From Nannocystis sp. SCPEA4 (lineage in GTDB: Bacteria; Myxococcota_A; Polyangia; Nannocystales; Nannocystaceae): a stretch of 64,000 bases of DNA. The stretch spans positions 12,752-76,751 of the forward strand of contig NZ_JAPNJX010000001.1 in NCBI RefSeq assembly GCF_026626685.1, given 5' to 3'. Below are positions 258 to 59,713 of this stretch, piece by piece. The number at the start of each line of letters is the position of its first letter. The stretch's first letter is position 1. The notes beneath the pieces were generated by a model. That model saw only the letters and a program-made list of their open reading frames with translations, ran no database searches and was not told the DNA's origin. A program made the translations under genes and the position numbers.

Positions 258-329
258 CCGTTCGCCAGCCTGTCCGTCACGACATGCCCGTCCGGACATG
301 CCCTGTTCGACATGTCCCTGACGGCAAGA

Positions 330-1499
330 TCAGCGCGGCGCTTCGCTGCGACGGTGGCCGCCGAGCTTGAGCTTGATGCCTGCCTGTCCCGGGTCCTGCG
401 CCGGCTCGCTCGGCTCGCTCGCCGGTTCGCTCGCCGTGCCGCCCTCGGCCGGCTCGCCCTGCGGCTCTGGCGTCGTCGTCTCCGGCGCCGCCTCGGGCTT
501 GGCGATCCCGAGCCCGCGATCGACCTCCGCCAGGCGGTCTTCGCGGGCCGCCTTCTCTTCCATCAGGACCAGGTTGATCCAGCGCTCGTCGGCGAACGAG
601 ACCGTGCCGTCGGTCGCGACCGTGTACTCGACCCTGGGCGACACCGGGCGGACGAACGAGTTGGGCGCGCGCGGCATCTGGATGTCGCGCAGCACCACCG
701 AGAGGCACTCCTGGACCTTCTGCGGCAGCGAATTGGGCTCGACGCGGCTGACCAGCGTGTTGCCCTCGCGGTCGACCAGGTTGAGGCCCTCGACCGGGTA
801 CGTCCCGGCGCCGACGCGGCGCTCGAGGCAGCCCTTGCCGCGGATGGCCGCGATCGCCTGTTGCCGGCGCAGCTCGGCCTGGGCCTGCAGCGACCTGTCC
901 TCCGAGCCATCTCCGAGGCTGACCCAGTAGATCACGTCGAGGTACTGCACCACCCCGCTGCGGTTCTTGATCCACTTGCGGCTCTGGATCGCCTCCATGA
1001 TGCAGGGCTCGATCTCCGGGTCCTTGAAGCCGGTGTCGAGCACCTCGGTGCGCAGCACCTCGCCGTCGGGCGACAGGCGCGTGCGGATCTTGACCTGCCC
1101 TTCGGGCACGTCGACATACGCCTCCTCGCCGTCGCGCTTGCCCCGCTTCATCGTCTCGATGGCGCGGTTGACGAAGCACGCCGCGGCCGGCGGGCGCAGG
1201 GCCTGGGCGATCTCGTTCAGGCGCTGCAGGTCGAACAGGTTCTCGGCCCGCTTCGACGGCAGGATGATCACGCCCTCGTTGCTGCTGCGGACCGCCTTTT
1301 GGATGTAGCGCGTGCCCTGGCCGAACGAGTTGTGGCCGGTCGGTGGGGCGCCCTTGCGCGCCGCGCAGCCTGCTGCGAGGAGGACGACGCACGACGCCAG
1401 CGCGGCCGCGGGCGCAAATCGCGCGCGAACGCCCGCGGAGGCGCCGCGAGGCTTGCTTCCGGGTTCACTCTCGGAGCGCATCGACCGGGGGTGTAGCAC
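330..1499 (-). CDS. hypothetical lipoprotein with Pro/Glu-rich N-terminal linker
   Basis: Signal peptide with lipobox (VVLLAAGC) and a PE-rich low-complexity region followed by a globular C-terminal domain. No family recognised with confidence. Confidence 0.5.
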
Positions 1500-1551
1500 G
1501 CCGCGGCCCTTCCCGCGGGGGCCGAAGTTGGCTATGGGAACGGGGAACCAT

Positions 1552-2674
1552 CATGGCCGATACAGCTTCGCTCCAGCGCACTCCCCTCCACGACGCCCAT
1601 GTCGCCCGCGGGGCGAAGATGGTCGACTTCGGCGGCTGGCACATGCCGCTGCAGTACGAGGGCATCCTGGCCGAGCACCGCGCCGTGCGCACCGCGGTCG
1701 GGATCTTCGACGTCTCTCACATGGGCGAGGTCGACTTCACCGGCCCCGGCGCTCTGGCCGCCATCCAGCGCCTGATCACCAACGACGCCGCCAAGCTGAG
1801 CGACGGCAAGGCGATGTACACGGCCGTCTGTTACCCCGACGGCGGCATCGTCGACGACTGCATCGTCTACCGCCACCGCGCCGACTGGTACCGGATCGTC
1901 GTCAACGCCGCCAACATCGCCAAGGACTTCGCCCACTTCAAGGAGCACGCGGGCAGCCTGTGCGCGATCGAGAACAACTCCGACCGCGTGGCCCTGATCG
2001 CCGTCCAGGGTCCGCAGGCCCGCGGCCTCGTGGCGCGCCTGACCGGCAGCGACGCCCTGCTGCAGGTGCCCTCGTTCGGGTTCGCCGCGGCCACCCTCGC
2101 CGGCGCCGACATCGTCGCGGCGCGCACCGGCTACACCGGCGAGGACGGCTTCGAGCTGTTCGTCGACGCCGACAAGGCCGTCGCCGTATGGGAGGCCCTG
2201 CTGGCCGGCGGCGCCGCCCCGATCGGCCTCGGCGCGCGCGACACCCTGCGCCTCGAGGCCAAGCTGTGCCTCTACGGCAACGACATCGACGCGACCACCA
2301 ACCCGCTCGAGGCCGGCCTCGGCTGGGTCGTCAAGCTCGACAAGCGGGCCCGCGGCGACGATTTCGTCGGCGGTGAGGCGCTGGCGAACATCAAGGCCGC
2401 CGGCCTCACCCGCTCGCTCGTCGGCTTCCGCGTCACCGAGGGCAAGAACATCGCCCGCCACGGCGCCGACATCGTCGACGCCGGCGGGGCCGTGATCGGC
2501 GCCGTCACCAGCGGCGGTCCGGCCCCGACCGTGGGCGGCGCCGTCGGCATCGCCTACGTCCCGGTCGGCTTGTCCGCCCCGGGCACCGCCCTCACGATCT
2601 CGCAGCGCGGCCGCACCTTCGCCGCCGAGGTCGTCAAGGGCCCGTTCTACCGCCGCCCCGAGCCGGCCGCCTGA
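1552..2674 (+). CDS. gcvT: glycine cleavage system aminomethyltransferase T protein
   Basis: Full-length match to the GcvT pattern ([24 protein letters not shown]-like motifs). Start taken at [12 protein letters not shown]. Confidence 0.93.
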
Positions 2675-57498: not shown

Positions 57499-58314
57499 AT
57501 GGAAGTGACTTTCTGGGGCACCCGGGGCAGCATTCCAGTTTCCGGGCCGAAGTACGTGGAGTTCGGCGGGAACACGCCCTGCCTTCAGATCGCGCTCGAG
57601 AGCACGACGGACACCATCATCTTCGACTCGGGCTCGGGCATCCGCGAACTCGGCATCCGACTCGTCCAGACTCGAGCCGCGCACTCGCGCGTCATCCACC
57701 TGTTTTTGACCCACGCTCACTGGGATCACATCCAGGGCTTCCCGTTCTTCCCGCCGGCCTTCATGCCGGACTTCCGGCTCCACATCTACTGCACGAAGGA
57801 CGCGCGCACGATCCTCGACCGCCAGATGTCGACGCCGTTCTTCCCCGTCGGCCTCGACGTGATGGGCTCGACCAAGCTGTTCCACCAGCTGCTCCCGCAA
57901 GAGGTCACGGCCATCGCCGAGGCGACGCTGCGCCACATCCCGCTGCCGCACCCGCAGGAGAGCACCGCCTTCCGCATCGACGAGCGCGGCAAGTCGATCG
58001 TGTTCGCCACCGACACCGAGCACGCGCCCGACCACATCAACGAGACGCTGCGTGACCTGGCCGAAGGGGCAGACGTCCTGATCTACGACGCCCAGTACAC
58101 CTCCGAGGAGTACAGCGCCGGCAAGCAGGGCTGGGGCCACAGCACCTTCTCCGAGGCCGTCAAGCTGGCCCGCGCCGCCCACGTCCGCAAGCTCGTGCTC
58201 TACAGCCACGACCCGACCCACGACGACGAGATGCTGCGCAAGATCGAGGCGGCCGCGCAGGAGCACTTCCCCAGCACCGTCGCCGCCCGCGACGGCATGA
58301 AGCTGACGCTCTGA
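57499..58314 (+). CDS. MBL-fold metallo-hydrolase
   Basis: HxHxDH motif LTHAHWDHIQG. RBS aaggatag precedes the ATG. Confidence 0.8.
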   Translation: MEVTFWGTRGSIPVSGPKYVEFGGNTPCLQIALESTTDTIIFDSGSGIRELGIRLVQTRAAHSRVIHLFLTHAHWDHIQGFPFFPPAFMPDFRLHIYCTKDARTILDRQMSTPFFPVGLDVMGSTKLFHQLLPQEVTAIAEATLRHIPLPHPQESTAFRIDERGKSIVFATDTEHAPDHINETLRDLAEGADVLIYDAQYTSEEYSAGKQGWGHSTFSEAVKLARAAHVRKLVLYSHDPTHDDEMLRKIEAAAQEHFPSTVAARDGMKLTL

Positions 58315-58405
58315 CCGCTTTCGCTGGCCGCCAGGACATGTCCTCGCGGCCAGGCTAGTTGGTTGTCGCTACACGAGCTCGTCGCTCGCGGCCTGTCGCT
58401 GCCGC

Positions 58406-59713
58406 TCAGGCGACCAGGCGCCCGACCGCGAGCGACCCCTCGGCCCGCTCGACCTCGATCCACGCCGACCGCCCCAGCAGCGCGTCGTCGCCGGCCGCCA
58501 GCACCGTCAAGCCGTTGTCCGCGCGCCCGACCAGCAGCCCCGTCCGGCGGTGACGCGAGCGGTGGATCACCGCCGACACTCGCCGGCCGACCTGCGCCGC
58601 CGCGAACGCCTGCTGCTTCGCCGCCGACAACGCCCGCAGCGCCGTCGCGCGGCGCTGCTTGAGCGCCGCATCGACCTGCCCTGAAAGACAGGCCGCGTCC
58701 GTCCCCGCCCGCGGCGAGTACGAGAACACGTGCAGGTACGCCAGCGGCAGCGACTCGAGCAGCGCATGGGTGTTCGCGAAAGCCGCCTCCGACTCGCCGG
58801 GGAAGCCGACGATCACGTCGGTGCCGACGCCGATCCCCGGCACGACCTCGGCGAGGCGAGGCACCAGCGCGCGCAGGTCGGCGGCCGTGTGGGCGCGACG
58901 CATCCGTCGCAGCGTGTCGTCGTCGCCGCTCTGCACCGGCAGGTGGAGATACCGGCACAGCCGCGGCTCGCCGGCCAGCAGCGTCACCAGGTCGTCGTCG
59001 ACCTCGTGCGGATCGACCGAGCCGAGGCGCAGCCGCGCCGCCCCGACATGCGGCAGCAATTCGGCGACCAGCCCCGACAGCGACGCGCGCGGCCGCAGGT
59101 CGCGGCCGTAGATCCCGAGGTGCACTCCGGTCAGCACCACCTCGGGCACCCCGGCCGCCACCAGTTCCTGCAGCTGCGCCCGCACCTCGTCGGGCGCCAC
59201 GCTCGCGCTGCGCCCGCGGACCCGCGGCACCACACAGAAGCTGCAGCGGTAGTCGCAGCCGTCCTGGATCTTCAGGTACGCCCGGCTGCGCCGCGGGTCG
59301 GCGGCGGGGCGCAGCCGGGCCACGCGGACCCGCCGGGCCAGGTCGACCGGCGCCACGTGGATCTCCGGGACATGTCCATCTGCACATGTCCCCGAGAGCA
59401 GCTCCATCAGCCGCTCCTTCTCGCGGTTACCGACCACCAGCGTCACCCCCGGCAGCGCCGCGGCCTCCTCGGGAGCGGCCGTCGCCCAGCAGCCGGTGAC
59501 CACCACCTTCGCACCGGCGCGCGCGGCCCGGCGCACGTGCTGGCGCGCGTCGGCGTCGGCCTCGTGGGTGATCGTGCAGGTGTTGACGACCACCAGCTCC
59601 GGCGCGGCCTCGGCGTCGACGACCGTGTGGCCGGCCGCGCGAGCCATCTGTTCGAGGGCGTCGGACTCGAACTGGTTGAGGCGGCAGCCGTGCGTGGCGA
59701 ACGCGACGCGCAT
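58406..59713 (-). CDS. mtaB: tRNA methylthiotransferase MtaB-like radical SAM enzyme
   Basis: MTTase N-domain (FATHGCRLNQFES, VVNTCTI), radical SAM CDYRCSFC, and a TRAM-like C-terminus. The start overlaps the stop of the upstream kinase gene. Confidence 0.85.
   Translation of the reverse strand: MRVAFATHGCRLNQFESDALEQMARAAGHTVVDAEAAPELVVVNTCTITHEADADARQHVRRAARAGAKVVVTGCWATAAPEEAAALPGVTLVVGNREKERLMELLSGTCADGHVPEIHVAPVDLARRVRVARLRPAADPRRSRAYLKIQDGCDYRCSFCVVPRVRGRSASVAPDEVRAQLQELVAAGVPEVVLTGVHLGIYGRDLRPRASLSGLVAELLPHVGAARLRLGSVDPHEVDDDLVTLLAGEPRLCRYLHLPVQSGDDDTLRRMRRAHTAADLRALVPRLAEVVPGIGVGTDVIVGFPGESEAAFANTHALLESLPLAYLHVFSYSPRAGTDAACLSGQVDAALKQRRATALRALSAAKQQAFAAAQVGRRVSAVIHRSRHRRTGLLVGRADNGLTVLAAGDDALLGRSAWIEVERAEGSLAVGRLVA

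Follow-up and report, generated by a model that had tools for sequence, protein, structure and literature searches.

The window analysed here, a stretch of 64,000 nucleotides from Nannocystis sp. SCPEA4 (NZ_JAPNJX010000001.1, positions 12,752 to 76,751), has a G+C content of 72.6% and carries genes for myxobacterial-type Ser/Thr kinases with tetratricopeptide (TPR) repeats, a hybrid histidine kinase, SHMT, gcvT and gcvH, a trp operon, and a Mur-ligase-family protein that is 95% identical to a Nannocystis pusilla protein. Two N. pusilla-like assemblies, L121 and L122, show synteny with this region. Exact-sequence look-ups of the SHMT protein and of an Enhygromyxa homologue gave no record. The names given to gcvT, gcvH, trpC, trpF and the oxidase subunit genes in the original prediction, which was made from the letters of the window alone, agree with Pfam. 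Spread over the spacers between these genes are arrays of a short palindromic box with the core GGACATGTCC. These boxes are specific to Nannocystis, abundant, extragenic and phased, and they are concentrated and best kept at gene 3′ ends. An Rfam scan of the whole window at the gathering score gave no match, and a tRNA scan was negative. The claim that the repeat does not belong to a described family is consistent with full-text searches of the literature on Nannocystis or myxobacteria with repeat, palindromic or REP (repetitive extragenic palindromic) terms, which found no description.

The excess of palindromic repeats in the window is real: GGACATGTCC is present in 8 exact copies compared with 0.03 expected from dinucleotide-preserving shuffles, and CCTGTCC in 29 copies compared with 10.5. 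A 14-nt weight matrix produced 174 matches in the window and ~22 in shuffled sequence, and the top-enriched 9-mers were GACATGTCC and ACATGTCCT. Using a phase-aware detector, we identified 38 sites with 93 units in the 64 kb. Two or more phased units are present at 25 of these sites, and several of the sites within genes are no better than chance. Some 16-20 sites are in spacers, and the density of ~1 site per 2-3 kb, with 1-7 boxes per site, agrees with the predicted "about 20 spacers" and "one per 2-3 kb". Arrays in the window are 24-94 bp long and composed of boxes only. Box-like units were present in every interval that had been listed, although the period is not 12-13 bp as proposed but exactly 14 bp, as indicated both by Tandem Repeats Finder (TRF) and by a spacing histogram that lacks 13 and 15. 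Nor is a T-run after the arrays a general feature, as T makes up ~16% of the 20 nt 3′ of arrays; the CTTTTTTAAA at 21536 is part of a separate canonical terminator and not of an array. The boxes account for spurious open reading frames (ORFs) and recurrent pseudo-peptides in annotation, and they also flag start codons that fall within boxes.

To place the boxes taxonomically, we searched bacteria and archaea, each species represented by one genome, with the pattern GACATGTCC-N5-GACATGTCC. At least 120 stretches contained this two-box pattern and, among the matches listed, nearly all were from Nannocystis (N. exedens, N. pusilla, N. punicea, N. bainbridge, N. radixulma, strain RBIL2 and metagenome-assembled genomes (MAGs)), the rest being a handful of MAGs from Nannocystaceae or Myxococcales and chance matches, single and scattered. 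Samples of 21 kb from Nannocystaceae ST9 and two further relatives outside the genus lacked the motif, and analogous repeats were not visible in 21-kb samples of sister genera; the motif was weak in a MAG with a Mur ligase of 80% identity. Since the listed matches are nearly all from Nannocystis and the motif is absent from the loci of three relatives outside the genus, the family is genus-specific, as had been predicted. By extrapolation from ~106 kb of unbiased sequence, each genome of 11-13 Mb contains thousands of boxes. Items ascertained by the search pattern were removed from the spacer densities, the core spacings, the partner regions of orthologous comparisons and the test of mismatches in convergent and divergent spacers that are reported below.

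Two of the pattern matches were in viral contigs. One of these, L127 (IMGVR_UViG_3300044464_000029), has ~24 dispersed cGGACATGTCCg-like boxes in 5.4 kb (880-6270) that do not form 14-bp arrays. We rejected these as members of the family, the contig having 44% G+C and its dispersed boxes being unrelated to the arrays; they may be a phage operator or promoter repeat that shares the same core.

Architecture of the box lattice

In a profile built from 388 phased pairs aligned on the C-rich strand, the unit reads R-GGACATGTCC-Y plus 2 unconstrained nt, a nearly symmetric 12-bp palindrome that recurs with a 14-bp period, and its best-preserved part is the central CATG. The half-sites GGACA and TGTCC alternate in orientation (GGACA·TGTCC-N4-GGACA·TGTCC...) and were observed in three arrangements only: GGACA-N0-TGTCC (199), TGTCC-N4-GGACA (235) and the direct repeat TGTCC-N9-TGTCC (271). 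The lattice can be read either as abutting 10-bp palindromes separated by 4 nt or as 5-N4-5 inverted repeats arranged head to tail, and both registers are also found as isolated examples. What had been described as a CCTGTCC variant is the right half-site with an altered centre (CATG to CCTG).

The register is rigid. Consecutive good cores are spaced by 14 bp (139 cases), 28 bp (37) or 42 bp (13), and spacings of 13 or 15 bp did not occur. The 4-nt spacers have no dominant 4-mer and no preferred sequence, and neighbouring spacers within an array are not more alike than random pairs (identity 0.293 compared with 0.275 ± 0.014). Array sizes are approximately geometric, with 93, 37, 21 and 11 arrays of 3, 4, 5 and 6 boxes, respectively; a preference for even numbers of boxes, as for hairpin modules, was rejected on these counts. 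Among the pooled loci we found no conserved sequence outside the arrays, neither flanks nor an element body, and no terminal inverted repeats, and the position profile showed no GTAG or CGTC tag beside the box. The suggested likeness to a miniature inverted-repeat transposable element (MITE) fails for this lack of terminal inverted repeats, conserved flanks and element body.

All arrays in the window have pyrimidine-rich spacers, whatever the direction of the genes, and GACATGCCC is present in 11 copies on the plus strand and 1 on the minus strand. Across 120 loci, this strand asymmetry follows the sign of the local GC skew, and in unascertained middle boxes read on the C-rich strand T7-to-C changes reach 45% compared with 18% for the mirror-image A2-to-G. 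We considered a replication-linked polar signal resembling FtsK-orienting polar sequences (KOPS) or Chi and rejected it, because the asymmetry tracks GC skew and the unit is nearly symmetric. We read the "polarity" as mutation pressure on a symmetric element. The GC skew is unusually strong. That of the window itself is -0.11, with third-codon-position skews of -0.38 for plus-strand genes and +0.07 for minus-strand genes, and most genes are on the C-rich strand. Along the 11.9-Mb contig_2 of N. pusilla Na p29 (L005-L109), the sign flips at ~1-3 Mb and ~8.3-9.0 Mb; as it changes only twice, the skew is replichore-wide.

Placement of the arrays and sites in the window

Boxes were densest in convergent spacers, with 9.2 units per kb and an array in 36% of spacers, followed by tandem spacers (3.5 units per kb, 19%) and divergent spacers (1.4 units per kb, 12%). 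In coding DNA there are 0.6 units per kb, a 6- to 15-fold depletion. The array frequencies fit ~0.19 arrays per gene 3′ end, a value that predicts arrays in 34% of convergent spacers where 36% was observed. For the 148 arrays in tandem spacers, 102 were closer to the upstream stop and 46 to the next start, and the distance from stop to array had a median of 48 nt and a lower quartile of 9 nt. Boxes are also better preserved between convergent genes, with 1.92 mismatches per box as opposed to 2.68 in divergent spacers (p = 4e-4).

This placement bears on the idea that the boxes are operators of a global transcription factor with a very large regulon, each array regulating a neighbouring promoter. 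The half-site lattice does resemble the 5-N4-5 sites of helix-turn-helix dimers, the 46 tandem-spacer arrays nearer to gene starts would suit such a role, and one array of seven boxes lies in a divergent spacer. However, density and preservation of the boxes are highest between convergent genes, where promoters are lacking, and divergent spacers hold the fewest and most degenerate boxes; arrays usually start a few nt after stop codons, and the genes beside them have unrelated functions. We therefore consider a regulon of this kind improbable. The boxes were also examined as translation starts or mini-ORFs. In 40 of 70 cases, more than one third, the box nearest a gene start had its ATG in the reading frame of that gene. 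The test is circular, as an ATG close to a start is likely to be the start itself; with a spacer TGA in only 8.5% of cases, we rejected this role.

Within the window, four convergent spacers illustrate the preferred location. Four boxes (6039..6090) fill the spacer between a methylguanine methyltransferase-like gene (5712-6032, plus strand) and a minus-strand gene (6091-6468). An array of 2-3 boxes (21548..21585) adjoins the stop (21596) of a minus-strand gene. Two near-perfect boxes (33511..33534) lie between 32876-33499 (plus) and the Mur-ligase-family gene (33553-34791, minus), and their number and sequence differ in L121 and L122. A single perfect box (58334..58343) is located in the spacer 58314|58406.

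Several other arrays lie close to a stop codon. The best array of the window, with six boxes (10296..10375), ends 10 nt before the stop (10386) of a minus-strand pmbA/tldD-like gene. Four boxes at 266..317 (CAGCCTGTCC, CGACATGCCC, GGACATGCCC and CGACATGTCC) start 13 nt past the stop (330) of the minus-strand gene 330-1271; three boxes (20468..20505) begin at the stop of 19374-20465 (plus); and two boxes with the sequence GACATGCCC (40701..40724) end 11 nt before the stop (40736) of a minus-strand Ser/Thr kinase gene, at the same place as in L121 and L122. Directly after the rplC stop (24821) is TGTCC-ttcg-GGACATGTCC (24809..24846), which is also present in L121 and L122. It is immediately followed by a unique GC-rich hairpin (CGAGCCGGC...GCCGGCTCG, 24846-24880) that is likewise conserved in both assemblies; a 3′ end can thus have boxes and a unique hairpin together. 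Five boxes (15710..15775) lie between 13942-15351 (plus) and the gene for the hybrid histidine kinase. Past the histidine kinase stop (19025), tcACATGTCCtttcaGACATCCTGA occurs twice, 55 nt apart, as a composite repeat around boxes (19062..19140, within 19059-19146).

Arrays also occur within operons. The gcvT-gcvH spacer (2696..2758) contains the half-site variant CCTGTCC every 14 bp (CCTGTCCGCAAGGA, 2.5 copies). In the trpC-trpF spacer (35470..35520), GGACATGTCC is followed by two in-phase TGTCC half-sites and then GAACATGCCC, and the annotated start of trpF coincides with the ATG at the centre of a box, at 35473-35475 (minus strand) in the window, 9317 in L121 and 9153 in L122. Four boxes (34791..34842) fill the whole 57-nt spacer between trpF and the Mur ligase gene, from stop codon to GTG start, and the orthologous arrays have four boxes in L121 and five in L122. 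In both spacers of trpC-trpF-mur (62 and 57 nt), the array occupies everything from stop to start. Two sites in this class differ from what had been described. The proposed trpD-trpG site (37415-37452) is not in a spacer, since the genes overlap by 4 nt and its weak boxes are in coding sequence. Between the oxidase subunit genes (55424-55597), box units are indeed present, but instead of a 14-bp tandem array there are three isolated TGTCC-N4-GGACA units 48-51 nt apart (55441..55549). They belong to a composite repeat, cACATGTCC-ccgc-GGACAGCCCCCTCGCG, present in three copies at ~48 nt (55433-55560).

Up to seven degenerate boxes (6973..7066) lie in the divergent spacer 6468|7252. Boxes also lie within genes: cTGTCC-cgcg-GGACATGTCC in the Ser/Thr kinase gene (43026..43049, peptide VPRDMS), kept in L122 and, with one box change (GGACACGTCC), in L121; four phased boxes in a ketoacyl-synthase-like gene (46958..47009 in 46377-47168, plus), near the end of the Pfam domain; and two boxes in a MiaB-like radical-SAM (S-adenosylmethionine) gene, in the linker between its two domains (59368..59391). 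Four phased degenerate boxes (52550..52601) are in a called ORF (52097-52978, plus) without Pfam match, whose coding status is uncertain.

Spacers of the window also carry longer tandem repeats, at 25645-25822, 28808-28976 and 51846-51993: one has 2.9 copies of a 54-bp unit and contains GGACAGCTGAC, one has 2 copies of an 86-bp unit and one has 2.2 copies of a 69-bp unit. In L122, the spacer at 16575-17149 has ~5 copies of a ~90-bp unit that ends in a hairpin and an A-run.

Hairpin potential and conservation of the boxes

Neighbouring boxes are predicted to pair into stems of 8-10 bp with loops of 4-6 nt, and the better arrays have fold z-scores of -3 to -6, the G-rich strand folding better because of G·U pairs. 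When 70-nt regions 3′ of stop codons were folded, z-scores below -2 were obtained for 62% of those with an array and 16% of those without, compared with 8% of 5′ controls. The sense strand modestly favours G·U-compatible variants beyond what skew predicts (Fisher p = 0.011), and the difference in fold energy between the strands depends on the direction of transcription (p = 0.019). Hairpin-plus-T sites resembling terminators were no commoner in the window than in shuffles, and a terminator scan returned one array-derived site only. Compared with a canonical intrinsic terminator, the arrays have the hairpin potential but no following T-run and so fall outside that class. The sole convincing canonical terminator in 60 kb is GTCGCCAGGG-CCCTGT-CCCTGGCGAC followed by CTTTTTT (21512-21545). 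It serves a plus-strand gene and stands back to back with the box array of the convergent gene; its loop reads CCCTGTCC.

Could the arrays act by RNA structure alone, as factor-independent bidirectional ("I-shaped") hairpin terminators or 3′-protective stem-loops whose shared sequence is a legacy of their origin? Several observations are in line with this: adjacent boxes form strong hairpins, there is a bias to 3′ ends and convergent spacers, most structured 3′ regions come from arrays, canonical terminators are nearly absent from the window, and the sense strand favours G·U-compatible variants. A hairpin, however, should tolerate changes in loop length, yet spacings of 13 or 15 bp are absent, and there would be no need for the same stem sequence to be kept from locus to locus and from species to species. 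Even box numbers are not preferred, and the arrays have no U-tract after them. Compensatory changes would also be expected, but we detected no Watson-Crick excess either within a box or between neighbouring boxes, and covariation as a demonstration of RNA structure was accordingly rejected. On balance, structure without a recognising factor is rather unlikely to be the explanation.

Sequence comparison of orthologous arrays gives a measure of constraint. Identity to the window at four-fold sites is ~0.93 for L121 and ~0.76 for L122, and arrays are located at the same spacers in all three; the array after pmbA (10296..10375) is also present at the same position in Nannocystis sp. RBIL2 (L080). 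For 20 orthologous array pairs in which the partner region was unascertained, divergence was 9.0% in boxes (45/501), 27% in spacers (34/126) and 18.5% in flanks (Fisher test, box vs spacer p = 6e-7, box vs flank p = 1e-6). The 7 gap-free pairs gave 5.2% in boxes and 19.6% in both spacers and flanks (box vs spacer p = 0.0015, box vs flank p = 2e-5). Boxes in orthologous arrays thus diverge 3-4 times slower than spacers or flanks, and between L055 and L069 both boxes are intact while every spacer base has changed. These comparisons point to purifying selection, or some box-specific maintenance, that would keep the boxes and their register.

The combination of random spacers, slowly changing boxes and a lack of indels rules out a neutral minisatellite that arises by replication slippage of the 14-bp unit. 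The tandem layout, the variation of box number between relatives and the roughly geometric array sizes are what slippage would produce. However, spacers next to each other resemble one another no more than random pairs do, which means that no recent duplications have occurred, indels are absent despite saturated spacers, and the same box is present at hundreds of unlinked loci; with the slower divergence of boxes, the data contradict this origin and leave it barely credible.

The same three features are hard to reconcile with the copying and pasting of a defined mobile element. Selfish DNA of the REPIN (REP doublet forming a hairpin) or REP type, spread by a single-copy REP-associated tyrosine transposase (RAYT) or another enzyme and surviving where it is least harmful, would fit the very high copy number, the restriction to one genus, the extragenic and palindromic nature of the boxes, and the gain and loss of arrays between relatives. 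Against it, there is no GTAG or CGTC tag, no conserved flank or element body, and spacers are not copied together with boxes; at orthologous positions the boxes are retained as spacers and flanks diverge, which replicative selection does not explain. No transposase family recurs beside arrays, and an associated transposase was rejected, since clustering of the genes next to arrays produced only the usual myxobacterial paralogue families (kinases, histidine kinases and extracytoplasmic function (ECF) sigma factors). A tblastn search of 1.16 Mb with Escherichia coli RayT, a test of low power, revealed no RAYT, and its best match was an S-adenosylmethionine methyltransferase. We regard a selfish origin of this kind as quite unlikely to account for the arrays.

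Comparison with known systems and interpretation

The description "REP-like" holds for copy number, extragenic location and 3′-end bias. Like REPs and bacterial interspersed mosaic elements (BIMEs) of enterobacteria and pseudomonads, the Nannocystis boxes are short, palindromic and extragenic, are present in hundreds to thousands of copies with a lineage-specific sequence, and form regularly spaced clusters with stem-loop potential, mostly in 3′ or intercistronic transcribed regions. REP/BIME sequences are bound by gyrase, IHF and Pol I and affect mRNA 3′ ends (PMC3733652, PMC2817692, bioRxiv 10.64898/2026.03.23.713779). There are also differences. A REP is an imperfect palindrome of 20-40 bp, whereas the Nannocystis unit is 14 bp long with a perfect palindrome of 10 bp (10-12 bp in a single unit), and two adjacent units give a REP-sized hairpin. 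The two large REP super-families are defined by a terminal tetranucleotide tag, GTAG or CGTC (PMC3733652), which the Nannocystis boxes lack. BIMEs have conserved linker motifs, whereas the Nannocystis linkers are random 4-mers between alternating half-sites; the register is absolutely rigid and no associated RAYT was seen in the low-power search. REPINs, which share with the boxes their high copy number, palindromic doublets and vertical inheritance within a genus, consist of two inverted REPs and a spacer copied as a whole, whereas in Nannocystis the boxes are conserved, also in in-situ orthologues, and the spacers are not.

Mobile and array-forming elements of other kinds differ as well. MITEs are 100-600 bp long, with terminal inverted repeats and a target-site duplication, as opposed to arrays of 24-94 bp without a body, and CRISPR arrays have repeats of 23-55 bp and spacers of similar length, as opposed to a 10-bp repeat and a 4-bp spacer. 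Bidirectional intrinsic terminators between convergent genes match the arrays in location and in having a symmetric hairpin for both directions, but they need flanking A- and U-tracts and have unique stems; the arrays have no such tracts, and their stem is shared genome-wide.

Dispersed signals of high frequency raise another explanation, namely molecular drive without any function in cis, through a DNA-uptake signal or biased repair. DNA uptake sequences (DUS) of Neisseria and uptake signal sequences (USS) of Haemophilus resemble the boxes in their frequency of ~1 copy per kb, in a core conserved in related species and in often forming terminator-like inverted pairs, and HIP1 (GCGATCGC) of cyanobacteria is a hyper-abundant, short, perfect palindrome that is lineage-specific and of unknown function. 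A drive of the sort proposed for DUS/USS or HIP1 would agree with ~1 box per kb and a sequence-specific core conserved across the genus, with the central CATG best kept; pairs of DUS also sit in terminators. Yet DUS and USS are not palindromic and form no phased tandem arrays, and HIP1 is dispersed singly, without a 14-bp lattice or 3′-end bias. The rigid tandem register would be left unexplained, as would the strong exclusion from coding DNA, given that USS, DUS and HIP1 are common inside genes. Competence, moreover, is not known for Nannocystis, and we judge this explanation very improbable.

In their lattice, the arrays resemble iteron-type operators. These comprise the met-boxes of MetJ (AGACGTCT, with an 8-bp period), the heptads of omega protein and the parC iterons of ParR, all of which are bound cooperatively by ribbon-helix-helix or other dimers. 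As in these operators, short palindromic or alternating boxes with sequence-specific cores follow each other in tandem and in exact register, with 2-10 boxes per site, and the bases between boxes are free. Iteron-type operators, however, are restricted to a few sites per replicon, at promoters or centromeres, whereas Nannocystis has, by extrapolation, thousands of sites, mainly at gene 3′ ends.

The explanation that we favour, tentatively and with somewhat less than an even chance of being right, is that the arrays are REP/BIME-like boundary elements at the ends of transcription units that are read by a putative specific factor. They would be cis-acting elements and functional analogues of REP/BIME. 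A putative symmetric, probably dimeric, sequence-specific factor would recognise each box and bind neighbouring boxes cooperatively, which would explain the invariant 14-bp spacing. Once transcribed, adjacent boxes would pair into hairpins in either direction of transcription, and factor and hairpins together might stop or pause RNA polymerase, protect mRNA 3′ ends, or both. In tight operon spacers such as those of trpC-trpF-mur, the predicted hairpins would hide the start codon of the next gene and could adjust the relative expression of the genes.

Two sets of observations lead to this proposal. Rigid spacing, free spacers, symmetry and the lack of covariation are what is expected of a symmetric sequence-specific factor that binds cooperatively, and the lack of compensatory covariation in particular argues for sequence read-out over pure structure. 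A role at transcription-unit ends is suggested by the bias to 3′ ends, by boxes that are better preserved between convergent genes, by the hairpins and the weak sense-strand signal, and by how scarce canonical terminators are. An abundant protein binding site was among the possibilities raised in the original prediction, and it is the one tentatively favoured by the rigid register, the random spacers, purifying selection and the absence of covariation; a transcript-level signal exists besides. A bolder version holds that a genus-specific symmetric protein polymerises on the 14-bp lattice, on DNA or on nascent hairpins, to form a bidirectional, protein-dependent boundary or terminator at the ends of transcription units that would largely replace hairpin-plus-U terminators. 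This is possible but doubtful.

Several points weigh against a boundary element read by a factor. Close relatives differ in the number and sequence of their boxes, some arrays are restricted to one genome, and such gain, loss and change in number imply that individual sites are dispensable. Boxes are found in 12% of divergent spacers and in some coding regions, and the 3′-end bias could reflect tolerance, insertions being least harmful away from promoters. The sense-strand effects on G·U pairs and fold energy are small and could come from mutation through a transcription-coupled bias. As to the data, the 120 comparison loci were chosen by a perfect two-box match, and the pooled profile, covariation, spacer, half-site, stop-distance and fold analyses include ascertained arrays; the orthologous comparisons are based on few and partly non-independent genome pairs; and genes were called with a home-made caller based on G+C at third codon positions (GC3), with approximate starts.

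In bacteria that combine a high GC content with a very large genome, myxobacteria among them, few intrinsic terminators can be recognised, and it is poorly understood how transcription units end. The box element offers an experimental handle on this, as it is easily recognised, is under measurable purifying selection and marks about one fifth of gene 3′ ends. A parts list of candidate terminators or insulators would aid the engineering of Nannocystis, a producer of natural products. The boxes also extend the concept of REPs to a family that is free of the RAYT tag and conserves only 10-bp boxes and their register, and in doing so they separate a "selected binding lattice" from a "selfish palindrome" more cleanly than classical REPs do.

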